From: Escherichia coli
Lineage (GTDB): Bacteria; Pseudomonadota; Gammaproteobacteria; Enterobacterales; Enterobacteriaceae
NCBI RefSeq assembly: GCF_013315695.1
Contig: NZ_CP054353.1
Reading direction: 5' to 3' (one strand)
Length of the DNA: 64,000 nt
Position 1 is the first letter of the stretch, and each line of letters begins with the position of its first letter. Positions 9,352 through 57,948 of the stretch are shown here, piece after piece. The translations under genes and the position numbers were made by a program. Under the pieces are notes generated by a model that saw only the letters and a list, made by a program, of their open reading frames with translations, was not told the DNA's origin and ran no database searches.

Positions 9352-10333
9352 CTTGCCGCTGATGATCACCATCGGCGTCTTTGTGCTGGGCTATCTCTAC
9401 TGCCTGACCCAGTTTCCCGGTTTTGCTTCCACAAGGGTGATCTGCAATATCCTGACCGATAACGCCTTTCTTGGGATAATCGCCGTTGGCATGACCTTTG
9501 TGATCCTATCTGGCGGTATCGATCTCTCCGTCGGTTCGGTGATCGCCTTTACTGGCGTGTTTCTGGCAAAAGTGGTTGGCGATTTCGGCCTCTCGCCGCT
9601 GCTGGCGTTTCCGCTAGTGCTGGTGATGGGCTGTGCCTTCGGCGCATTTATGGGGCTTCTGATCGACGCCCTGAAGATCCCGGCATTTATCATTACGCTT
9701 GCGGGGATGTTCTTTTTGCGCGGCGTCAGCTATCTCGTTTCGGAAGAGTCGATTCCGATAAACCATCCCATTTATGACACGCTCTCAAGCCTTGCGTGGA
9801 AAATCCCTGGCGGCGGTCGCTTAAGTGCGATGGGACTGCTGATGTTGGCGGTGGTGGTTATCGGCATATTCCTCGCGCATCGTACCCGTTTTGGTAATCA
9901 GGTATACGCCATTGGCGGCAACGCAACGTCGGCGAATCTGATGGGGATTTCCACTCGCAGCACCACTATTCGCATTTATATGCTCTCCACCGGACTGGCA
10001 ACGCTGGCGGGGATTGTCTTCTCGATTTATACCCAGGCCGGATATGCGCTGGCGGGCGTAGGTGTGGAACTGGATGCTATCGCCTCAGTGGTAATTGGCG
10101 GTACGCTTTTGAGCGGTGGCGTTGGAACGGTATTAGGGACGCTTTTTGGCGTGGCGATTCAGGGACTGATTCAGACTTACATAAACTTTGATGGCACGCT
10201 GAGTTCCTGGTGGACGAAAATCGCCATCGGTATTTTGTTGTTTATTTTTATAGCATTACAGCGTGGATTAACGGTGCTGTGGGAGAATCGTCAGAGTTCG
10301 CCAGTGACAAGAGTCAACATTGCGCAGCAATAA
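9338..10333 (+). CDS. yjfF: ABC transporter permease (331 aa)
   Basis: Polytopic membrane ORF overlapping ytfT end; paralogous to ytfT. Confidence 0.9.
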   Translation: MIKRNLPLMITIGVFVLGYLYCLTQFPGFASTRVICNILTDNAFLGIIAVGMTFVILSGGIDLSVGSVIAFTGVFLAKVVGDFGLSPLLAFPLVLVMGCAFGAFMGLLIDALKIPAFIITLAGMFFLRGVSYLVSEESIPINHPIYDTLSSLAWKIPGGGRLSAMGLLMLAVVVIGIFLAHRTRFGNQVYAIGGNATSANLMGISTRSTTIRIYMLSTGLATLAGIVFSIYTQAGYALAGVGVELDAIASVVIGGTLLSGGVGTVLGTLFGVAIQGLIQTYINFDGTLSSWWTKIAIGILLFIFIALQRGLTVLWENRQSSPVTRVNIAQQ

Positions 10334-10365: not shown

Positions 10366-11364
10366 TTACGCGTCCGGGAACTCACGGATAAAGCGTTCGA
10401 CATCTTCAACCATATGGTCGTTGCCGACAAAGAACGAACGGCGCTGGTGCAGGGTTTCCGGGATAATATCCAGAATACGCTCTTTGCCATCGCTCGCTTT
10501 ACCGCCCGCTTGTTCCGCCAGGAATGCCATCGGGTTGCACTCATACAGTAAACGCAGTTTACCGTCCGGGTGGCTGGCGGTGCTTGGGTAGAGATAAATA
10601 CCGCCTTTCAGCAGGTTACGGTGGAAATCCGCAACCAGTGAACCGATATAACGTGAGGTATACGGGCGGTTGGTGGATTTATCTTCTTCCTGGCAGAATT
10701 TAATGTACTTCTTCACCCCGTTCGGAAACTTAATGTAGTTTCCTTCGTTGATGGAGTAGGTTTTGCCTTTCTCCGGGAAGCGCATCCGTTCCTGGCACAG
10801 GCAGAAAACGCCCAGCGAAGGATCGTAAGTAAAGGCGTGAACACCGCATCCGGTGGTGTAAACCAGCATGGTAGAGGAGCCGTATACCACGTAACCTGCC
10901 GCAACCTGTTTGTTACCAGGCTGGAGGAAATCTTCTTCCGTTACCGGCGTGCCAACAGGCGTAACGCGGCGGTAGATGGAGAAAATGGTACCGACAGAGA
11001 CGTTAACATCGATGTTGGACGAGCCATCCAGGGGGTCCATCAGCACCACGTATTTTGCGTGTTCACAGCCTTCAAAGACGACAATCTCATCTTCTTCTTC
11101 AGAGGCAATCCCCGCAACGATATCGCGTGCTTTCAGTGCGGCTTTCAGTTTTTCATTAGCGAACAAGTCGAGTTTCTGCTGAACCTCGCCCTGCACGTTC
11201 TCAGCACCGCTGGCACCCAGGATATCAACCAGTCCTGCTTTGTTGATATCGCGATGGATAATCTTGGCGCCCAGTTTTATTGCCGACAGCAAAGCAGTGA
11301 GCTCACCGGTAGCATGAGAAAACTCGTGCTGCTTTTCGACAATAAATTCACCTAACGTTTTCAT
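10366..11364 (-). CDS. fbp: Fructose-1,6-bisphosphatase class 1 (332 aa)
   Basis: Protein starts [12 protein letters not shown]...; the longer 393-aa ORF is an upstream in-frame extension. Confidence 0.95.
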
Positions 11365-47270: not shown

Positions 47271-47355
47271 GCCGAAGTGGCGAAATCGGTAGACGCAGTT
47301 GATTCAAAATCAACCGTAGAAATACGTGCCGGTTCGAGTCCGGCCTTCGGCACCA
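47271..47355 (+). tRNA. leuX: tRNA-Leu (anticodon CAA), 85 nt with long variable arm
   Basis: Sequence gccgaagtggcgaaatcggtagacgcagttgattCAAaatcaaccgtagaaatacgtgccggttcgagtccggccttcggcacca. Confidence 0.95.
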
Positions 47356-47889
47356 TCTACATTTTCCTCTTGAAAAACAAGCGATTAAGTAAATTATTTT
47401 ACCTTTTTTGCCTATCTAATCTTCACTGATTCTTTCCCGTATAAAAGCCACTGTGATTGTTAATGGCTTTGGTATGTTAGCACGCAGTGGCAAGTAGTTA
47501 CCAGGCTCAACCTTGTACTGCATACGCCAGTATGCCCCCCTTTGAAGCAGGAAGACGCGCCGCCGTCTCTAAACCTATGCCAAGCACTTTTAACCGTTCC
47601 ACACTTAGTTCGGCGTTCCGTTCAAGCCTGTCGTGGTGACTTACCACGAATAAACAAGCAAATTCGCGGTATGGTATTCGTTACGAGAGCGGTTAACTGA
47701 CAAGACTCCTGTGATACGCCTAAGGTGCTTAAATTGATGCGTCCAACATGGCACAAAAGGCGGTCTATCGTTTAATTTTGCTCCATACATCAACTGGCAT
47801 TGCCAGCTGTATGGGGCTTGGTCTGCTGGTTCCGATGAACGGATTAAATTGCTAAGATGCAGACCATAAGCCATAAGGCGGAGATAAGT

Positions 47890-49098
47890 ATGAAATCTGT
47901 AGAACTATTTGCCGGTGCTGGTGGCTTGGCTATGGGTTGCGAAATTGCTGGTTTTGAGCATCTTGCAGTCGTTGAATGGGATAAATGGGCCTGTGATACC
48001 GTTAGAGAGAACAAAAAGAATGGCTTTCCGCTGTTGTCTGATTGGGATCTTTTTGAGGGTGATGTAAGAGAATTTGATTGGTCGAAAATCCCTAAAGGGA
48101 TTGACCTTCTTGCGGGAGGGCCACCTTGCCAGCCATTTTCAATCGGTGGTAAGCACAAGGCTAATTCTGATTCGCGGGACATGTTTCCAGCGACAGCAGA
48201 AGCGATCAGGCAAATTCGCCCTAAGGCTTTCATCGTCGAGAATGTGAAAGGCTTAACACGGGCAACCTTTGCGAGCTATTTCCAGTACATCCAGTTACAG
48301 CTTGAGTTTCCAGAAGTAGCCCCGCGAAATGGCGAAGACTGGAGCGAGCATTTAAAACGCTTGCAGGAAGAAAAAACCAGTGGAAAGAACAAAGGGAGAG
48401 GGCTGACGTATAACGTTCTGGCTACGTTAGTCAATGCAGCAGACTACGGCATCCCACAAAAACGTGAGCGTGTCTTCATTGTTGGCTTCCGCGATGATCT
48501 TGAAATTGAGTGGTCGTTCCCTAAACCGACACACAGTTATGATGCACTCGTTTATGATCAGTGGGTTACTGGTGATTACTGGAAACGACATGGTTTAGAA
48601 ATGCCAACTGTTCCAAGCCAGATGGTTAACCGTATCGCAAAATTGCGTAAAAATCCTCCCGATACACTTCCGTGGAAAACTGTTCGAGATGCAATCGCGG
48701 ATTTGCCAGATCCTGAAACAAAGGCGGCAAAGATGATCCGGAATCATGCGTTCCAGGCGGGGGCACGAACTTATCCCGGTCATACCGGAAGCCCCTTAGA
48801 TCTGCCAGCTAAAACGCTCAAAGCAGGTGCTCATGGCGTTCCTGGGGGCGAGAACATGCTTGTTCGTGATGATGGCTCAGTACGCTATTTTACTGTGCGA
48901 GAAAGTGCCAGAATTCAAACATTTCCCGATAGTTATCGTTTTCACGGGAGTTGGACTGAAACTATGAGGCAGTTAGGTAACGCTGTGCCGGTTCATTTGG
49001 CGTATTGCGTTGCCAGCAGTGTAGCGGAAAAGCTGCTGACCTCTGAAATTGGGAACATCCTTAAGCAGGGTGGCAATTATAAAAGGGCTTCTGCATGA
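47890..49098 (+). CDS. DNA (cytosine-5)-methyltransferase, Type II R-M modification subunit (~402 aa)
   Basis: C5-MTase motifs I FAGAGG, IV PPCQPFS, VI ENV, VIII QKRERVFIVG, X GNAV; SD GGAG upstream of ATG 47890 (ORF track starts at 47857). Confidence 0.85.
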   Translation: MKSVELFAGAGGLAMGCEIAGFEHLAVVEWDKWACDTVRENKKNGFPLLSDWDLFEGDVREFDWSKIPKGIDLLAGGPPCQPFSIGGKHKANSDSRDMFPATAEAIRQIRPKAFIVENVKGLTRATFASYFQYIQLQLEFPEVAPRNGEDWSEHLKRLQEEKTSGKNKGRGLTYNVLATLVNAADYGIPQKRERVFIVGFRDDLEIEWSFPKPTHSYDALVYDQWVTGDYWKRHGLEMPTVPSQMVNRIAKLRKNPPDTLPWKTVRDAIADLPDPETKAAKMIRNHAFQAGARTYPGHTGSPLDLPAKTLKAGAHGVPGGENMLVRDDGSVRYFTVRESARIQTFPDSYRFHGSWTETMRQLGNAVPVHLAYCVASSVAEKLLTSEIGNILKQGGNYKRASA

Positions 49099-49745
49099 CA
49101 GGAAAGGTCATACCATTTAATCCACTTGATAAACAAAATTTAGGTGCCAGCGTTGCGGAAGCCTTATTGAGCAAAGATGCTCATCCTCTGGAGGAGTTAA
49201 CCTCATTTCAAGGAGCAGGGATTTACGCAATTTATTACACTGGCGATCATCCTGCTTATAGGCAACTGGCAGAACTGAATCGTGACGGGCAATTTCGATT
49301 GCCTATCTACGTGGGTAAGGCCGTCCCAGCAGGGGCGAGAATGGGGCTTACCAACCCTGATAAGGTTGGTAACGTTCTGTTTAGGCGCTTGAAAGAACAT
49401 GCAGAAAGTATTCGCGCAGCGGAAAATCTTTCGATTGAAGATTTTTATTGTCGATTTTTGGTTGTTGATGACATCTGGATCCCATTGGGAGAATCGCTGG
49501 TTATCTCTCGCTTTAAACCGATTTGGAATTCGTCTATTGATGGTTTCGGTAATCATGACCCAGGTAAGCATCGCTACACTGGTTTACGTCCTCGCTGGGA
49601 CTTTATGCACCCGGGGAGAGGATGGGCTCAAAATTTACGTGAGCGTGATGAAACTGTGGATGAACTCATTCGTGATTCTATACAGTATCTTCAGAATTTA
49701 CCGCCTTGCTTGGCTCAGAAATTTATCGAAGCTGAAGGCGATTAA
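49095..49745 (+). CDS. GIY-YIG-family restriction endonuclease, Eco29kI/Cfr42I-like (216 aa)
   Basis: GIY...YVG motif (GIYAIYYTGD...RLPIYVGKA); start overlaps the MTase stop (ATGA). Confidence 0.65.
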   Translation: MTGKVIPFNPLDKQNLGASVAEALLSKDAHPLEELTSFQGAGIYAIYYTGDHPAYRQLAELNRDGQFRLPIYVGKAVPAGARMGLTNPDKVGNVLFRRLKEHAESIRAAENLSIEDFYCRFLVVDDIWIPLGESLVISRFKPIWNSSIDGFGNHDPGKHRYTGLRPRWDFMHPGRGWAQNLRERDETVDELIRDSIQYLQNLPPCLAQKFIEAEGD

Positions 49746-49866
49746 TCAGCAAATGATCATCGGAGGCATCTGCCTCCGAATGTGATTAAGCCTTGGTTGA
49801 CAAAGTGGTTGCTTAAAACATTAAGCGTTAATTTTCTGGCCCTCTACCTTCTGACGTGCATAATTC

Positions 49867-50442
49867 TCAAATATCAGGGAGTTGCAAGAACGACTTAAGT
49901 CGGTAGAAGGTTGCTTTGCTGATCTCTAACCTATCCTGGACCGCTGCTGGTGGTAATCCTCGTGCTAATAACTCACGTACTTGTTCAACGGTTGCTTTGA
50001 TCGGTCTGCCGCAATGCTTACCTTCCGACTGAGCTCGTTTGATTCCTGCGGCTCTACGCTCTGCGATTAGGTCTTTTTCCAGGCTGGCAAGTCCTGCCAT
50101 CATAGTGAGCATGGCTTTACCCACTGGTGTTGAAAGATCAAACCCCTCTCGCAAGCTGACAACCTTCACACCCTTCATTTGCAACATTTCAACAGTAGAT
50201 AGTACATCGATAGTGTTACGTCCCAAGCGGTTTATAGCAATCACGATCAGCGTATCGCCTTCTCGCACATAATTGAGTAGTTCAGCAAACCCTGGACGCT
50301 CTCCTGCCTTGATTGCACCACTCACCGCTTCATCACTAAACCAGCGAGTTACGCTATAACCAGCATCGGCTATCTGCTTCTTCTGGTTTTCAACGTTTTG
50401 ATCGCTGGTGGAAACTCGCACATATCCGATCACAGTTGTCAT
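49867..50442 (-). CDS. Serine recombinase, resolvase/invertase family (191 aa)
   Basis: N-terminal catalytic motif IGYVRVSTSDQ and C-terminal HTH. Confidence 0.85.
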   Translation of the reverse strand: MTTVIGYVRVSTSDQNVENQKKQIADAGYSVTRWFSDEAVSGAIKAGERPGFAELLNYVREGDTLIVIAINRLGRNTIDVLSTVEMLQMKGVKVVSLREGFDLSTPVGKAMLTMMAGLASLEKDLIAERRAAGIKRAQSEGKHCGRPIKATVEQVRELLARGLPPAAVQDRLEISKATFYRLKSFLQLPDI

Positions 50443-50454
50443 GATGTTCTCTAA

Positions 50455-50576
50455 GTCTCAAAAGGTAGTGTCAAAATAATAGCTGTCTCAAAATTAAAGA
50501 TCAACCTTTTGAGACAAGGCGAAGCCGCATTCTGTCGTTGCGTCGGTGTGGTCTTATAAGGAGATGGTTTTGAGAC
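50455..50576. promoter_or_regulatory. Candidate res/recombination site: GTCTCAAAA repeats upstream of the serine recombinase
   Basis: GTCTCAAAA at 50455 and 50485, GTGTCAAAA at 50468, inverted TTTTGAGAC at 50507 and 50568. Confidence 0.45.
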
Positions 50577-50681
50577 TGGATAGCAGCGGTTTAGGAATAG
50601 AGGCTTGGAACGAGAGTATGGGGAGAATGGAAATTCGGAATGGGCGGTCAACTTATTGGGCGTGATTGCTCACGCCTTTGT

Positions 50682-51033
50682 TTAGATCTCAGAACACAGG
50701 CTCAGCGTGTAGAGTGCCGTTTCACCATCGTTGTTAGTTGGGCGCATAACGAAAACTGGATCACTGCCGTTGTCGATGTAAGTAACCGCTATTCCACCGT
50801 CTGGGGTGGCGTACATCTTCGCAATACTTTTCTCTCCAATGAAACCCAGCCGCCAGGTTTTACCACCCATGCTCACTTTCATGATTTTGTCCCGCACATC
50901 GAGGCGAGTTTCGACAGACGATTTTTGGCTACCAGAATCTATCTGCCCTTCCTGAATGGCCTTACAGGTGAATGTGGTTGCACTTGAGGCGAAGGGGGGG
51001 GACGAGCAGCGCCGCGAGAATCAATTTTTTCAT
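50682..51033 (-). pseudogene. Small secreted protein gene interrupted by a G8/C8 homopolymer frameshift (possible phase-variable gene)
   Basis: ATG at 51033 encodes signal peptide MKKLILAALLV then 8 C at 50994..51001 shifts frame; 7 or 10 C would join it to the 71-aa ORF 50682..50897. Confidence 0.5.
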
Positions 51034-51213
51034 GGTCTTCCTTTTGGATACGAGTTAAGAGTTCGTCGGGAGACATTATAAAATCTTTAATTGATAAAAA
51101 CGATCAATTTCTATCGTATTGATCGATAAAATTGATCATAATTGAAACTATAAATCCTACGCTCAGTCGTTATGGATGAGGTTTTTTATAAGAGAACTCA
51201 ACGGGATGATGTT

Positions 51214-51420
51214 ATGAAAAGAGCAATGATGGTGATGTGTGGGCTACTGTTTTCACAGTTGGTAGCAGCAGGGCAGATCACAATGATCGATCCCCAGCAG
51301 GATACGACGGAGAATGGCAAGACGCTTTGCACCTACGAGAACAGCCAGTATGTTTTTACCTACGTCACTAAAGGGCAGTGCCCCTATGCAAAGACTTTCG
51401 ATACTCAGGATTCAGAGTAG
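51214..51420 (+). CDS. Small secreted cysteine-containing protein (68 aa from MKRAMM)
   Basis: Signal peptide MKRAMMVMCGLLFSQLVAAG; mature part has two Cys (TLCTY, GQCPY). Confidence 0.5.
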   Translation: MKRAMMVMCGLLFSQLVAAGQITMIDPQQDTTENGKTLCTYENSQYVFTYVTKGQCPYAKTFDTQDSE

Positions 51421-52604
51421 AGGCTGCATAAAATAGGAAGTGTTGTTTAACTTCATGAAAAGACAGGTGTGCTTAGCACAAGCCTCCAACGGATTGATTG
51501 TTAATTCTTCTGATAACGGCACAGCGCAAGGCTTTACGCAAAGAGAGTGATAGTTACTATCTTGATGACTATGGCAATTTTCCCCCTGTAACAACGGCAT
51601 TCATTACCTGCTAATTACCAGCGGATTACGCGCCAGTTTGATGGGAATTAACTCAGGGTTATTGCATGGGGTAGTGTGGAGTGAGCAGGGTGACAGTCTA
51701 CCGTTGGGTGAAGGGCTGATAGGTAATCGACGCGAAGCGCCGGAACCATACTGTTATGCGCTGGCCTTGGTGCCAGGCTCACGCCGCGCATGAAAGATAG
51801 CCATTACAGGAGAGATAATTTTTGACAAGTTACCTTCATCAAAGGTGCTTCTCCTGTATAAATGCTTGTTATGCTCGCTATGCTCCCAAACACAAACCCA
51901 TTAAACCCAACTAACTTAAGGTTAGTTAATTGGTTTTCTCTCTCTCTTGGGCTACTACCGCCCAAACTTTGCTTAATGCCATACAGCGACTACGCCGCCA
52001 TTAACAACACTCCACAATGATCCAATGGCATTCCTGCTTAATGTCATCCACCGATCTTGATTAGCCACCAACCAAACAACCACCCTAAATCTTTTAGGCT
52101 GTCTGTTTATCTGGTGCAAGGTAGCTATGACATTACCATACGTGCAAACATCCCAAGCCAATCATCACTGATTGGCTCGTGCTGATGCACTTCAGTGCAG
52201 AGAGAGAATCTCTCTACTATTATAGCGTATTTAGTAGGTCCCTGTATTTAAAGGAAAAATTAGGGTGAAAATCGCCATTGTTCACTTTTTTTCTCAAGAA
52301 ATGGCGAGATGCTGTTCGTAAATGGGAGGCATGGCTGTCTTCTCTGGTGGCAAGTTCTACCACAAATTTTGATTGACAGCAACCATCTATTTCTGGTATA
52401 AGAAGCACTAATTGCAAAGCAAAAATGCAACTAATTGAAAATGACCAAAAATATTTCATGAGATCACCGTTTGGGTATTGACAAACGTTAGTGGTCTATG
52501 GTATTCTTAATACTAAGAAGGGGAGAAAACCTTCTGAACTTTTCAGCCCTGGGCAGGGTAACTGCCTGGGGCTTTTTGCATCCAAAATCCGAAGGAGGCC
52601 ATTA

Positions 52605-52781
52605 TTGAAGTATTACAGCAGTGACCAGATTTTTAATGACCTGGTGAGCGGCGAAGTGAAACGCCACGTTATTTACGCATCTATGCAAGCAGCAAAATCG
52701 AGAGGGTATACAGACCGAATGGAAATGTTTCAATCTGCAATTATCCGTTATGACCAACACCGAAGGGAGAACACCAACTAA
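52605..52781 (+). CDS. Hypothetical small protein (58 aa, TTG start)
   Basis: Perfect SD AGGAGG 6 nt upstream of TTG 52605; stop overlaps the next gene's SD; function unknown. Confidence 0.4.
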   Translation: MKYYSSDQIFNDLVSGEVKRHVIYASMQAAKSRGYTDRMEMFQSAIIRYDQHRRENTN

Positions 52782-52790
52782 GGAGGAACA

Positions 52791-53711
52791 TTGATTCAAG
52801 CATACGAAGACGGCTATTTTTACAGAGATACCCCGCACCACGATCACTGCCCGCTTTCAGCATTTTCCAGACCATCCCAGCAATTCATCGTTATTGATAA
52901 TGTTCTGTACGTTGTCGAAGTGGAAAGTGGTGAAATTCTTCACTACGACTCGACAGAGTATTTGCTTGATGGTGGCATTGTTCAGGATCTGCATTTGAGT
53001 TACTCGACAGCAGACACCGCCAAATCAAAACAGGCTCACCGTGAATACGCTAATAAGCTGGGCGACCTTCCAGGGAATGCAGCCTATAACGGGATCAAGG
53101 AATACGCAGACGTATTAAGCAAGCCAGATTTCAAGAAAGTATTTGCATTGTGTCAGGAAGTAGATAGACGCAATGTAGTGTTTATAAAACGTGCGGATTT
53201 GAGCATAATACTGAACACCACGCCGGATCATCTCAATCGTGTATTATCTGCTCTTGAACGTAAGCACTACATCAAAGTTGATAAAGCTGAACACCAGAAA
53301 GGAGTATTAAAACTGTGGGTTAATCCTTCGTTTGTCTGGAAGGGTGATTCAGCTAACCGCTACTTATCTGGATATTTGCAGGGCTTCCCAATCTTGGAAC
53401 GTAAACGCTCCACAAAACGTTCTGACGTGCTCGACACGCTCACGGCTGCTGCAATGGTTGCCTTTGATACCTGGCACATTGAACACGGTTATAAGGCCAA
53501 TCAGCCTCATTCTAATGAATGGTATGCAGAGATCACGATGTACGAAAACGCCTACGGCGAAGGGGTGAGGCTTGCAGCAGAAAATAAGACATTGAACAAG
53601 TTATTGAACCCGGCAACATCTGAGGGGGATTTCGTTTATGAGCTATTCACTACGGCACAATACAGGGAATACCTGCAAACATTGGCAAAACAAGTAAGGA
53701 GATTACACTGA
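52791..53711 (+). CDS. Hypothetical protein (306 aa, TTG start) with possible winged-helix region
   Basis: SD AGGAGG at 52781..52786, TTG at 52791; N-terminal His/Cys cluster (HHDHCP); central helix-rich segment; no recognised catalytic motif. Confidence 0.6.
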   Translation: MIQAYEDGYFYRDTPHHDHCPLSAFSRPSQQFIVIDNVLYVVEVESGEILHYDSTEYLLDGGIVQDLHLSYSTADTAKSKQAHREYANKLGDLPGNAAYNGIKEYADVLSKPDFKKVFALCQEVDRRNVVFIKRADLSIILNTTPDHLNRVLSALERKHYIKVDKAEHQKGVLKLWVNPSFVWKGDSANRYLSGYLQGFPILERKRSTKRSDVLDTLTAAAMVAFDTWHIEHGYKANQPHSNEWYAEITMYENAYGEGVRLAAENKTLNKLLNPATSEGDFVYELFTTAQYREYLQTLAKQVRRLH

Positions 53712-53995
53712 ACCAATGTTTTGTAATAAAGAAGCCAGCACAATACTTATTTGAACTAAATTAAGCAACTCTCATACACACCGCTCTTTTGGTGAGTTAT
53801 TTATTACTATCTTTAAGGTGATGAGTGTTTATACTGTATTAAATTATTATAAATAAGGGGATGGTGTATGATTACAGCTCTTTATTGGTGTTTGTTCTTT
53901 CAGTTTGCGCTGTATTTTTTGTCTAAATTAAATTTAAATTGAAAATTAGCCCTGATCTTGAAATAGTTCAGGGCTGGAATTTCTAAAAAATAACA

Positions 53996-54955
53996 TCAGT
54001 GTGCTTTTAGTTCATCTTTAGCTAATGAGTCATAGAGTATTTTTGTGAGCGGAGACTCTAAATAATCATCACTAAGTAGTTTAATAAAATGCTTTTGGGA
54101 TTCTTTTGTTTTTACGAGCAATTGTGTGCCGTCTTCACTTACAATTAAAACTGTTGAAAGATAGGTATGCTTGCTTACATAATCGATAATTTCTGGCACA
54201 TCAATTTTCCCCAGTACAGGTGAGTGTTTGGCAATTTTGGCAAGCTTCCTTGAGAAAGAAATTTCTTTTGCACTCTTCTCAAGGTGAGTAAGATCTTCGA
54301 TAAGCAATGAAGCTTTCAATGCTTCCAAAGCCACCGTTGCTTGAGCTTCAATAACCTGATGGAACTGCATCGTTATTTCTAAAGTTTTTTGATTTTTTAT
54401 CAGGAATTCGTCGTCTATAAGAGCCAAGTCATAATTATAATCTAATCGGAACACTTGGGTTGGCAATTCTTTTAAATACCCGTCTGCGTCTGGTATCAAG
54501 TTAAACAATTTTCGGCTTTGCTCAAAAACCATGAGGTTTGTTTTGTTCTTATACAATGACAAACACTTATTGTTGCCTCTTAACTGAATTATTATCCCTT
54601 TCACGTCAGTAAATTTATTATTTAAATCATAATAATCCTGAGAGTTAGGCGGTATGGCTATTGCATTTTTTATAAAATCAAACTCTTTTGGATGTTCTTC
54701 ATAATCAAATGCAAACAAGGCATTTTTTCTATCATCAAAATTCGAAAGGAGAGGAATGGTTAAATCCTCATTTGTCACAATGTCGTCGTAAAGCCTAATT
54801 TTGAATCCTTCAACAATTTTTGGTAAAGCTTCAGCATCTATTTTAGATAATTTTAATTCATAATTATCTTCAGTTTTAACTATAAAGATAATTCTTATAC
54901 CTGAGAAATTATCGAAAATTTCGGTGATTTGATTTTTAAAATTCACAGGGGTCAT
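53996..54955 (-). CDS. Candidate Kiwa KwaB-like (DUF4868-like) defence protein (319 aa)
   Basis: AT-rich soluble ORF coupled by 1-nt TAATG overlap to the upstream 4-TM protein; assignment is by architecture only. Confidence 0.45.
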   Translation of the reverse strand: MTPVNFKNQITEIFDNFSGIRIIFIVKTEDNYELKLSKIDAEALPKIVEGFKIRLYDDIVTNEDLTIPLLSNFDDRKNALFAFDYEEHPKEFDFIKNAIAIPPNSQDYYDLNNKFTDVKGIIIQLRGNNKCLSLYKNKTNLMVFEQSRKLFNLIPDADGYLKELPTQVFRLDYNYDLALIDDEFLIKNQKTLEITMQFHQVIEAQATVALEALKASLLIEDLTHLEKSAKEISFSRKLAKIAKHSPVLGKIDVPEIIDYVSKHTYLSTVLIVSEDGTQLLVKTKESQKHFIKLLSDDYLESPLTKILYDSLAKDELKAH

Positions 54956-55542
54956 TATTTTTTCCTTGCTATGAAAACGTAGTCATCAAAAAAACTATAG
55001 AATACTTGATCGTCAACAGTCAGCACATCCATCGAGATTGCAATGACGTTTTTTACTTCACCACTTCCTGCATGAGAAATGTTAACTCTATACAACTTAT
55101 AACCGAAAAGCGCCAAAGTAGGATTCGCATAATACTTATCCGTTTTAATGAAAATTAAACCAATAACTACTATTAAGAGAAAGTACGCAATGTTTTTCTG
55201 AGGGTCATCAAAACTGAATCCCATAAAAGGTACTATGTAAGTTGCTAAGAAAGTCAAACTTTCATAGCTCTCACTTTGGCAAGCAGTGATTGTTACACAG
55301 TCAGCATTGTTGACCTTCGTCAATCCTTTAAACCTTCTATAGAAATAAAATGCTATTCCTATAAAAATTAAACAAATTATTGAGATTATGTTGCTGGAAG
55401 CTAATTGATAAAAACCTATAAAATGGCAGGAAGAGCCATAACAAAATGGGATTTTTGCGCTCAAAATGATAATAAAAACAAACAGCAACATTAAAGACAG
55501 TATGTATAGTCCCATCTTGTTGAATGTGCTTTTTCGTTTCAT
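54955..55542 (-). CDS. Candidate Kiwa KwaA-like membrane protein (~195 aa, four predicted TM helices)
   Basis: Four hydrophobic segments; start taken at MKRKSTF with GGGGGA SD (ORF track starts 10 codons upstream). Confidence 0.45.
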   Translation of the reverse strand: MKRKSTFNKMGLYILSLMLLFVFIIILSAKIPFCYGSSCHFIGFYQLASSNIISIICLIFIGIAFYFYRRFKGLTKVNNADCVTITACQSESYESLTFLATYIVPFMGFSFDDPQKNIAYFLLIVVIGLIFIKTDKYYANPTLALFGYKLYRVNISHAGSGEVKNVIAISMDVLTVDDQVFYSFFDDYVFIARKK

Positions 55543-55826
55543 GTTATCCCCCAGTGATGAAATCATAATCAAAACTTGATCATGTGAACATCAAAAGCAT
55601 ACCTTAAAGCACTGGTTTTTTGTACAGCAATCGGCAAATTCATGCGTACTATCGAACTTACAAGAGGACGCATAGTAGATTTTCTGATCCAAATTGCCAT
55701 CATGTACTTTTAATTCATGTAGAGTAGCCAATGAAGTATCAGCAATTACATGATTTTATTGTCTATTTTTTATGTTTTTTTGTAAAACACCAGAAGATTG
55801 AAAAGGGCCAATGAGGCCCCTTGGCG

Positions 55827-56078
55827 TTATTTACGGTTTTTGTTGGATTGAGCCAGCACGGAAGCAGCAAGCTGCTTGGTTAAAGTACTGGAACGTGGAT
55901 TATCCAGCGCCGCAGATGCTTTATGTTCCATTGCACCACTTGTCTGATTTGAGGAACCTTTTTGAGAGAGAGCTGAACCAGCAAGGCTCTTCTGAATTGC
56001 AGATGCGTTGGGGTTGTTTAGGGTTTGTGCTGCGACTGATGCGACTTTACTTGATGTTTGCTTTGAATTGTTAGCCAT
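55827..56078 (-). CDS. Hypothetical low-complexity Ser/Ala/Gln-rich small protein with ~20-aa internal repeats (83 aa)
   Basis: Repeats of A-[AS]-x-[LA]-x-Q (SVAAQTLNNP / SLAGSALSQK / SAALDNPRSS / LAASVLAQSN); no TM segment. Confidence 0.35.
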   Translation of the reverse strand: MANNSKQTSSKVASVAAQTLNNPNASAIQKSLAGSALSQKGSSNQTSGAMEHKASAALDNPRSSTLTKQLAASVLAQSNKNRK

Positions 56079-56309
56079 TCTCAACACCTATTCAAGAAGT
56101 GAATTATTGAACATCTTGTATTTAAATCAAGAATGAATACAAGATGTAGTGTTAATGATAATCCTCACCGCTTCGCTGTGCAACGATGAAAAATCTCTTT
56201 ACTGGATAAAACTACAGTTTTAAAAATGTGCGGTATTTCTGCTTTCAAATTGGCTTAATGTGCATACATTTAGATGATACCACTGCGTTTTCTGATCGTT
56301 ATTCGTTCA

Positions 56310-57587
56310 CTATTTATCAGTTTTCTCACGTTGGGGCTCCGTCTCTATCTCTGGGTAACGTAATAGCTCGATGTATGGCTGTAGTTCAATCGGAGATGCT
56401 GCATTCTTGCTGTACGTCTTGAAACTTTCTGTAGAGCCGCGCTCATGACCCAAGAGAAGTGCGATCCGGTCTTCTGTAACTGGTTTTAACTTACCTCGTC
56501 CAACCCCCCCACGATCCAGAATCTGCGCCACTGCATGGCGTAGACTGTGAAAAACTTTCAACTCTGATCCTACTTCCCCCAATGCCTTACGTTTAGCCCT
56601 CGTAAAACGCTGTGAATGCCACGTAGAGCGCTTTCCATCTGCGCGGTCAGCTATCGACGCACGATAGAATAAAAAGCCGTTATGGGGCTTCTCACGCAGC
56701 GACAAAACCAACGGAGTGATCAGGCTATGCACCGGAATAATACGGGCTGCTGATTTGGTCTTCCCCTCCGTCACTTCGAAACATAACACCCCTTCAATCT
56801 CTCGGATGTTGGCTGCACGTAATGAACAAATTTCATTCAGGCGCATACCGCTATACATCCCGATCAGCGTTACATTTTGCATCTCTTCATCATTCGCCAT
56901 CACAGCGAACACCTTCGCCAATTCTCCAGGCTCAAATACTTCATAACTCACCTTGCTACTTTTGGCCTCCAGCGCATGACCGCGCCAGATGTTTTCTTGC
57001 GGTGCATCGTGGTAGCGATTACGGGCCAGATCCCAGATTTGAGCCAGTGCGCTGACATAGTTTTGTATGGTCTGTGGTGCTTTCTCCGTCTTGAGCTGAT
57101 CAAGCCAGCCTGTAACGGTGGTTCGGTTAACGTCACGAAGCTGAACATCACGCTTTTTCAGATGTTCTAAGAGCACTTCAACAGCCTTGTTTGTCTTCGA
57201 TAGCGTAGTGAGTTTGCGCTTCTCGCTGAACTGCAATAGATAAAGATCACGCATTTTCAGGAGGGATGGCACTCCTTGGGATTGGGTATTGCTCATGACA
57301 TGCTGAACAGGTGTTTCATGAACTCGGGCGCTAACTCTGCGTAGCTCTGCAATTGCCTGCTCAATCTTACTCCCTTCTCTTGGTTTGACCTGTTCCCGTA
57401 AACGTATCCATTCAACAGCGATAGCATCTCTGAACAATCGCGCCTGACGTATGTCACTTGTGCCAGTGCTCTTGACGAAGTAGCGCTTGTTGCCAAAAAG
57501 CGAGCGCATGTAAGCTGGAACGGTAATCCTTACCAGATAGTTTCCGCATGGATCTAAAACTAAGTAACGATCTCTCTTGAAACTCAT
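56310..57587 (-). CDS. Tyrosine site-specific recombinase (island integrase), ~425 aa
   Basis: C-terminal catalytic region with conserved R...HxxR...Y (SLRHAVAQ ... ESFKTYSK); adjacent to island att repeat. Confidence 0.85.
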   Translation of the reverse strand: MSFKRDRYLVLDPCGNYLVRITVPAYMRSLFGNKRYFVKSTGTSDIRQARLFRDAIAVEWIRLREQVKPREGSKIEQAIAELRRVSARVHETPVQHVMSNTQSQGVPSLLKMRDLYLLQFSEKRKLTTLSKTNKAVEVLLEHLKKRDVQLRDVNRTTVTGWLDQLKTEKAPQTIQNYVSALAQIWDLARNRYHDAPQENIWRGHALEAKSSKVSYEVFEPGELAKVFAVMANDEEMQNVTLIGMYSGMRLNEICSLRAANIREIEGVLCFEVTEGKTKSAARIIPVHSLITPLVLSLREKPHNGFLFYRASIADRADGKRSTWHSQRFTRAKRKALGEVGSELKVFHSLRHAVAQILDRGGVGRGKLKPVTEDRIALLLGHERGSTESFKTYSKNAASPIELQPYIELLRYPEIETEPQREKTDK

Positions 57588-57707
57588 GTTCACCCCGGCT
57601 ATTTTGTAAGGGCTTTTACATGGGGAAGTTTCCTGTGTAGATTGTTGGAGCGGCGAATTATTAGCAGTTGATTCAATAGCTTAGATCAGCTTGCTGGACA
57701 AGCGAAC

Positions 57708-57750
57708 ACCGTAGAAATACGTGCCGGTTCGAGCCCGGCCTTCGGCACCA
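57708..57750 (+). repeat. Direct repeat of leuX 3' end (island attR), 43 bp with one mismatch
   Basis: accgtagaaatacgtgccggttcgagCccggccttcggcacca versus tRNA 47313..47355 (T in the tRNA). Confidence 0.9.
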
Positions 57751-57764
57751 TCGGAACATCAATA

Positions 57765-57788
57765 GACGTCAACGGACGTCTTTTTTTG
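57765..57788 (+). terminator. Intrinsic terminator after the displaced tRNA 3'-end copy
   Basis: Hairpin gacgtc-aacg-gacgtc followed by T7. Confidence 0.7.
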
Positions 57789-57948
57789 TGCCTAAAATCC
57801 AGTATCCGCAAGGCTTTCCTCGCTTTTTCACTCAACCTAAGTCAACCTGATTCAATCTACATCAACTTACTGATGCGGGTACAACTGCGGGTATTTCCCG
57901 GTTCGATAATGTTTGTACCCACACAGAACCCTTGAAAGGATACTCATC

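Follow-up and report, generated by a model that had tools for sequence, protein, structure and literature searches.

A conserved three-subsite, res-like array upstream of a small serine recombinase gene on a leuX island of Escherichia coli

Upstream of a small serine recombinase gene that adjoins a restriction-modification (R-M) pair on an E. coli leuX island, a short sequence recurs in both orientations, raising the question of what this array does and whether, as a sequence-only reading had suggested, it makes the R-M genes part of a resolvable or invertible cassette. Throughout the window (the whole 64,000-nucleotide stretch analysed, 64 kb) there are four exact copies of GTCTCAAAA, every one inside 50455-50576 (Table 1), against a chance expectation of 0.71 copies in 64 kb; four copies were reached in 0 of 100 dinucleotide shuffles, and the clustering is real and non-random. 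The repeat array reported upstream of the recombinase is confirmed by these exact copies and the degenerate ones that accompany them. The reported number, five copies within 120 bp, is right if one mismatch to GTCTCAAAA is allowed in the fifth (GTGTCAAAA, 50468-50476), whereas the reported extent is slightly too small, the array covering 122 bp, from 12 bp to 134 bp upstream of the recombinase ATG.

A sixth, degenerate half-site (GTCTTATAA, 50551-50559; GTCTTAAAA, nearer the consensus, in E. coli C) is the partner of the copy at 50568, and the four exact and two degenerate half-sites make up three dimer-sized subsites upstream of the gene. Subsite I reads GTCTCAAAACCA-TC-TCCTTATAAGAC, with its central dinucleotide at 50564-50563, and is followed after 35 bp by subsite II and, after a further 8 bp, by subsite III, which ends 12 bp from the recombinase start codon. 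When the window was scanned for inverted pairs (spacers of 4-16) with a position-weight matrix derived from 90 half-sites, subsite I scored 29.1 bits and subsite II 33.7 bits, the best dimer site of the 64 kb. A predicted sigma-70-like promoter of the recombinase gene overlaps the array, its -35 hexamer (TTGATC, 50504-50499) lying within the subsite II spacer and its -10 hexamer (TATTAT, 50481-50476) between subsites II and III; both hexamers are kept in diverged loci.

Table 1 Positions of the array, the recombinase gene and the main island features in the window.
Feature	Position	Strand	Details
res subsite I, putative crossover site	50576-50551	-	GTCTCAAAA-N8-TTATAAGAC; 9-N8-9, inverted, 26 bp
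res subsite II	50515-50485	-	GTCTCAAAA-N13-TTTTGAGAC; 9-N13-9, inverted, 31 bp
res subsite III	50476-50455	-	TTTTGACAC-TACC-TTTTGAGAC; 9-N4-9, direct repeat, 22 bp
GTCTCAAAA, exact copies	50455-50463, 50485-50493	+	
GTCTCAAAA, exact copies	50507-50515, 50568-50576	-	
Sigma-70-like promoter of recombinase (predicted)	50504-50476	-	Consensus scan, 9/12 matches, 17-nt spacer
Small serine recombinase, 191 aa	49867-50442	-	Pfam Resolvase 4.4e-41, residues 4-142
Asn71 codon AAC (GAC to AAC)	50230-50232	-	Replaces invariant Asp of DRLGR; equivalent of Tn3/gamma-delta D67
One-sided pseudo-site	51404-51379	-	GTATCGAAAGTC-TT-TGCATAGGGGCA; three-way alignment
Eco29kI-family R-M pair	47857-49745	+	Pfam DNA_methylase 9.4e-63, RE_Eco29kI 4e-66
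tRNA-Leu(CAA) leuX	47271-47355		
attL, 3' 45 nt of leuX, island left boundary	47313-47357	+	45-nt direct repeat, 98% identical to 57708-57752
attR, duplicated leuX 3' end, island right boundary	57708-57752	+	
Island tyrosine integrase	56310-57593	-	PGAP annotation of identical EcPF7 region; PHROG integrase 1.3e-27

Related loci were drawn from a scan of 100,044 species genomes, which yielded 12 usable Enterobacterales loci (66-92% protein identity), and from complete E. coli genomes and a plasmid collection (a K. pneumoniae record). All six half-sites and all spacer lengths are kept in at least 15 Enterobacterales loci, where the gap between subsites I and II alone varies (34 or 35 bp); across 15 loci mean pairwise identity is 0.82-0.96 in the half-sites versus 0.61-0.73 in the spacers and gaps. 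The spacer of subsite I occurs as three sequence types (CCATCTCC, GGACTTCC and GGAAGTGG) of constant length, and the most symmetrical version of this subsite, GTCTTAAAAGGA-CT-TCCTTTTGAGAC, has a 12+2+12 organisation. Array layout is identical in the E. coli O111, M19 and MS115-1 and K. pneumoniae loci, and subsite III is a direct repeat in every related locus. Conservation of this kind indicates a protein-binding array under geometric constraint, and the adjacent recombinase would be its obvious ligand, because the two always occur together and the array accompanies nothing else. The earlier description of a res-like, multi-subsite region thus holds, with three subsites, fixed spacing in at least 15 loci and overlap with the promoter.

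When 5,426 complete E. coli genomes were searched by sensitive blastn with the 140-bp res, 225 proved to have a res-like region. A more distant case is a 3.6-kb Halomonas plasmid, which encodes a recombinase of 56.5% identity with roughly the same inverted-inverted-direct array, here of GGNTCAAAA half-sites. In Selenomonas ruminis (L017), a site of perfect geometry, GTCTCATAA-N8-TTTTGAGAC (10781-10806), lies ~220 bp downstream of a recombinase gene of 28% identity; an identical half-site is therefore known far beyond the Enterobacterales. In Pantoea dispersa (L011) an IS3-family element has inserted in res (~9800-9965), with loss of subsite I and the left half of subsite II, and subsite III and the recombinase gene are all that remain of the module.

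The encoded protein has the architecture of a small serine recombinase, namely an N-terminal domain with catalytic Ser11 (in YVRVSTSDQ), which aligns with the nucleophile of Gin and gamma-delta resolvase, a GRP linker and a C-terminal HTH (HTH_7, 22.4 bits, residues 145-183, just below the 23.8-bit cutoff). Among PDB entries it matches Gin best (1.6e-28), followed by gamma-delta resolvase (2.7e-23) and Sin (6.9e-15), and it matches PHROG 125, labelled ‘DNA invertase’, at 2.3e-57. In sequence it is slightly nearer to two invertases, Gin and Hin, than to the gamma-delta enzyme, and subsite I, at 26 bp (12+2+12) with an asymmetric, non-palindromic core dinucleotide, is like hix and gix sites. These properties would suit a DNA invertase of the Hin/Gin/Pin type for which subsite I is one of two inverted sites, switching the R-M genes or the small genes; prophage invertases PinQ and PinR are reported to affect phage adsorption.

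Inversion would call for a second crossover site, and none was found. In the 64-kb window the matrix scan revealed no further dimer site, the next best candidate (12.7 bits) equalling the mean shuffle maximum (12.8 bits) as against 29-34 bits for the real sites. Scanned with the same matrix for inverted and direct pairs, 0 of 20 related loci had a partner site within 10 kb, so that no second sequence like subsite I, in either orientation, accompanies the first. There is one res per element in 21 of 21 loci, and blastn with the 140-bp res located one res place, and no second, in the source genome. When the whole island was used as query, the leuX island copies proved collinear in seven of seven E. 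coli genomes, save for one IS100 insertion. Strictly spaced accessory subsites such as II and III are moreover a feature of resolvases and not of invertases, and an invertase is accordingly a very improbable identity for this enzyme. As a separate observation, 14 of the 225 res-carrying E. coli genomes (e.g. MRE162, 2013C-3492 and FCI1) have two res-like places.

The same results bear on the R-M genes. These lie on the 3' side of the recombinase gene, opposite to res, and are not bracketed by sites; a second repeat set, which the sequence-only reading had proposed to seek in island and genome, is missing from the window, the source genome and the 20 loci, and the structural variants it had looked to are absent from the seven island copies, bar the IS100 insertion. 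The cassette idea is not supported, and in this genome it fails; the R-M genes are ordinary cargo of the island and do not form a cassette that can be switched. Also rejected was a connection of the repeat with the specificity of the adjacent R-M system, the Eco29kI family recognising CCGCGG and not GTCTC. For a resolution system a lone res is normal, the substrate coming into being only with a dimer, concatemer or cointegrate. The single res place per element fits such a system and counts for the array being a res site.

The window allele of the recombinase carries a substitution, D71N, in the active site (Table 1). The Asp of DRLGR is present in 15 of 15 homologues and in Gin, Hin and gamma-delta resolvase, and 15 of the 16 family members retain this and all other catalytic motifs; the window protein (INRLGR) lacks the full set of active-site residues that the family has. 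Sister islands of JSWP006, MINF_7C and CEA106S encode recombinases that differ from that of the window only by D at position 71, E1739 likewise has D71, and D71N is private to the sub-lineage of EcPF7, MS15047 and NCTC9080. The D71 protein has the accession WP_000214246.1 and the N71 protein WP_000214247.1. In Tn3 resolvase the equivalent change, D67N, gave zero resolution in vivo and a cleavage rate 0.018 of that of the parent, so not a fully inert enzyme (PMC2794168, Table 2). By analogy, D71N probably cripples the window recombinase, leaving it poor at recombination, while DNA binding and autorepression may persist.

The 116-aa signal-peptide/lipoprotein-like gene that adjoins res (50682-51033, minus strand) has a +1 frameshift in a C8 run near 50994-51001 in the same sub-lineage, and E1739, JSWP006 and E. 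coli C have an intact copy; the frameshift could reflect decay, a slippage-prone tract or a sequencing error common to the three assemblies. Because D71N and the frameshift of the adjacent gene occur in the same sub-lineage, the recombinase-res module appears to be decaying there.

Such an allele, next to a frameshifted gene, is what might be expected if the module were a domesticated DNA-binding regulator, with the repeats serving as operators of its own and perhaps neighbouring promoters and recombination being irrelevant; the embedding of the promoter in subsites II and III and the presence of one site per genome would agree with this. However, subsite I, although more than 45 bp upstream of the -35 hexamer, has a fixed, conserved geometry, the catalytic motifs including DRLGR are intact in all but one of the 16 members, with D71N confined to one sub-lineage, and a junction in Erwinia, described below, falls on the subsite I core. 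A purely regulatory role is thus considered unlikely.

The window region is 100% identical to E. coli EcPF7. The host island (10,395 bp, 47358-57752) is bounded by 45-nt repeats at leuX (Table 1), and its tyrosine integrase is likely to be the enzyme of both integration and excision. From left to right it carries the R-M pair, the serine recombinase gene, the frameshifted 116-aa gene, an 82-aa gene, an ORF-poor stretch of 1.4 kb, a gene for a 306-aa winged-HTH protein, Kiwa genes kwaB and kwaA, and the integrase gene. The Kiwa anti-phage system is complete (kwaB, 53996-54955; kwaA, 54955-55572; GC ~0.29-0.37) and occupies a second cargo slot of the leuX island, beside the integrase (53996-55572). 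Within the ORF-poor stretch (51420-52790), the right part (from ~52038) is ~87% conserved in Buttiauxella and the whole stretch is conserved in Kosakonia; it contains no iterons and no Rfam family was found in it. Neither PHROG nor NCBIfam gives a match for the 306-aa protein, and in the window island no replication protein was recognised; the HTH protein of the E. coli C island, a different protein, gives a weak match (4e-9) to phage replication initiators. A second leuX-type island follows in tandem (57753-63500) and is degraded, comprising an integrase pseudogene with an internal stop and fragments of IS3, IS66 (ISEc23), IS110 (ISEc45) and IS21. Searching the literature on this island family (thiM or leuX) gave nothing relevant.

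Direct repeats near a promoter can be iteron-like, and as the island encodes a winged-HTH protein the repeats might be iterons or operators of that or another island protein, the recombinase being an incidental neighbour. Against this, array and recombinase occur together without the winged-HTH gene in ETEC1732, Erwinia, the O111 prophage and the Halomonas plasmid, that gene lies outside the conserved 720-bp module, and inverted repeats of dimer size fit serine recombinases; little credence can be given to another island protein as the ligand.

Comparison of the elements shows that recombinase gene and array together form a module of ~720 bp. On the R-M side, homology with other islands is lost 8-10 bp past the stop codon of the recombinase gene (~49857-49859), and on the other side homology with elements of Erwinia (L005), Citrobacter (L007), Mixta (L013) and E. 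coli ETEC1732 stops at subsite I (~50577). Three settings were recognised. The first comprises tyrosine-integrase islands of ~10-11 kb at leuX or the thiM TPP riboswitch, in which the DNA between the integrase/att end and the recombinase gene's 3' end is a cargo hot spot containing, depending on the host, Eco29kI R-M, SIR2/ImmA/HigB, TIR, AIPR+HNH or Hachiman genes. With a thiM island as query, replacement of cargo was seen and no rearrangement anchored at res. In E. coli B strains, as in BL21(DE3) (L024, 3001-6733), only the right ~3.7 kb of the thiM-riboswitch island is kept, 100% identical to E. coli C; because this E. coli B/BL21 remnant abuts a copy of IS1A at its left edge, it suggests an IS1-mediated deletion of integrase, cargo and recombinase genes, unrelated to res.

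In the second setting the module is found at the ends of prophage-like elements that carry tape-measure and Dit genes or else early genes of lambdoid type, ~340 bp from the element end in E. coli O111 11128 (L020), MS115-1 (L021), M19 (L022), L010 and the Mixta locus. These elements are integrated between tonB and yciI or beside ymdF and have, on the 3' side of the small recombinase gene, ~1.8 kb of DNA without annotation; in M19 and MS115-1 the opposite end encodes a large ‘recombinase family protein’ (547 aa, or truncated), taken to be a putative serine integrase. The third, more distant setting is the 3.6-kb Halomonas plasmid. A role for the small recombinase as the integrase of these elements was rejected in view of the att duplications, the dedicated integrases and the prophage-type homology that extends past subsite I.

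One locus preserves a junction within the array. In Erwinia typographi (L005) the sequence reads GTGTCGAAAGTC-TC-TCCTTATAAGAC and the join falls on the central dinucleotide, the right half of subsite I being identical to that of the window and the left half, which matches the left half of the window pseudo-site, and the sequence beyond corresponding to window 51392 upward (BLAST breakpoints at window positions 50577 and 51392). Relative to the window, ~828 bp (50564-51391) with two small genes is absent. This junction is the trace to be expected of a recombinase-mediated deletion or insertion at the subsite I core, and it is the only direct hint, a single case, of subsite I acting as crossover site.

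It also raises the possibility that subsite I is an attachment or exchange site, at which the small recombinase inserts, deletes or swaps segments and so creates the adjacent mosaicism. Homology repeatedly stops at subsite I (in L018 as well as in the Erwinia, Citrobacter and Mixta loci), the Erwinia locus joins a foreign left half to the right half of subsite I exactly at the core, and the triplets on the inner side of the half-sites (CCA/GGA) are found in reassorted combinations. Small serine recombinases are used by the Ralstonia RSM phages to establish prophage. More generally, a review (PMC3816273) describes some filamentous phages as establishing prophage through host- or phage-encoded integrases or recombinases. 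On the other hand, each of the elements possesses a tyrosine or large serine integrase and an att duplication of its own, prophage-type homology runs ~340 bp past subsite I, the variable defence cargo is on the other (3') side of the recombinase gene and the pseudo-site of the window has one recognisable half-site only; ordinary mosaicism would also give breaks at a functionally conserved half-site. Exchange at subsite I as the source of the mosaicism is therefore regarded as rather unlikely.

Slightly less doubtful, though still speculative, is that integrative elements with no other relationship share the recombinase-res unit as a portable hot spot of recombination. Backbone and cargo would then be actively reshuffled by crossovers at the subsite I core, whether these involve pseudo-sites or two elements that are co-resident or in tandem, and the Erwinia junction would be a fossil left by one of them. 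If true, resolvases would be drivers of defence-island mosaicism and not mere housekeeping resolvers of multimers.

The best explanation of the array, from its sequence and arrangement, is that it is the res site of the adjacent, resolvase-type small serine recombinase, and this we hold to be probable. Three recombinase dimers, by extension from the family, would bind subsites I, II and III, and two res sites in direct repeat on one supercoiled molecule would synapse, candidate substrates being the excised island as a dimer or concatemer, a cointegrate, or a tandem of two related elements. Exchange of strands at the central 2 bp of subsite I would resolve the molecule, and the integrated, single-copy state would undergo no recombination. 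Binding at subsites II and III, which bracket the -35 and -10 hexamers, would in addition repress the recombinase promoter. The unit would thus be a portable module of ~720 bp of small tyrosine-integrase defence islands and prophage-like elements, of which the window sub-lineage has a D71N version that probably still binds and autoregulates and recombines poorly. Resolution of two-copy substrates together with autoregulation is the function we favour, with about the same moderate confidence. Besides the invertase-like traits of protein and subsite I, some points run counter to this: multimer resolution gives no obvious reason for the module to sit at the ends of integrated prophages, the window island, with no iterons found and a 306-aa winged-HTH protein that lacks a PHROG match, gives no sign of replicating or forming multimers, and there is one historic junction at the subsite I core, with no others found.

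Recombinase genes of defence islands are usually dismissed as mobile-element debris; here one is accompanied by a cleanly defined, conserved and tractable res site. Its occurrence on defence islands and prophages makes the module a model for the role of resolvases on integrative elements and for the shuffling of cargo. For annotation of this genome, the R-M genes are to be treated as ordinary cargo and the local recombinase allele as probably impaired in catalysis.

Among known systems, the Hin/Gin/Cin/Pin invertases share with the present one the best match among solved structures (Gin), the GRP linker, the 26-bp length of the crossover site and its asymmetric 2-bp core. Invertases, however, work with a pair of inverted crossover sites that flank a segment and with an enhancer bound by Fis, and lack accessory recombinase sites, whereas here one crossover-type site without a partner is combined with two accessory subsites. 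The likeness to Tn3/gamma-delta lies in the three dimer subsites just upstream of the gene (binding here being predicted), with the crossover site distal and the accessory sites near the gene, in the size order of the subsites (III < I < II), in overall length (122 bp as compared with a 114-bp res) and in the single res per element; the half-site, which starts (T)GTCT, recalls the TGTCY motif of the Tn3 family. Unlike Tn3/gamma-delta, where all subsites are inverted, subsite III is a direct repeat, the centre-to-centre distance between subsites I and II is ~63.5 bp (~53 bp in Tn3 res), the subsite I core is non-palindromic (TC, CT or AG), neither transposase nor terminal inverted repeats are present, the host being an integrase-borne island or a prophage, and the proteins are distantly related (86 bits to gamma-delta resolvase).

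A direct-repeat accessory site bound by a recombinase dimer is known from the 86-bp res of Sin, which acts in plasmid dimer resolution on Staphylococcus plasmids (PMC2428073); its counterpart to subsite III is Sin site II. Sin nevertheless has two recombinase sites and an HU/IHF site, as against three recombinase-type subsites here, the inverted-repeat subsite II being extra to the two-site arrangement of the Sin/beta type, and sequence similarity is weaker (58.8 bits). By sequence the protein falls between these groups (Gin 103 bits, gamma-delta 86, Sin 59), and the inverted-inverted-direct layout is intermediate between the Tn3 and Sin types and slightly unusual.

The closest biological precedent, likened by layout and setting, is the Res/res system of SGI1, in which a three-box res of 107 bp that includes the res promoter, on a tyrosine-integrase island, eliminates island multimers (PMC12217951). 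SGI1 differs in having known replication and mobilisation functions, of which none were found in the leuX island; what the two have in common is a three-subsite res directly upstream of a serine resolvase gene, with the -35 and -10 hexamers inside it, on an island with a tyrosine integrase.
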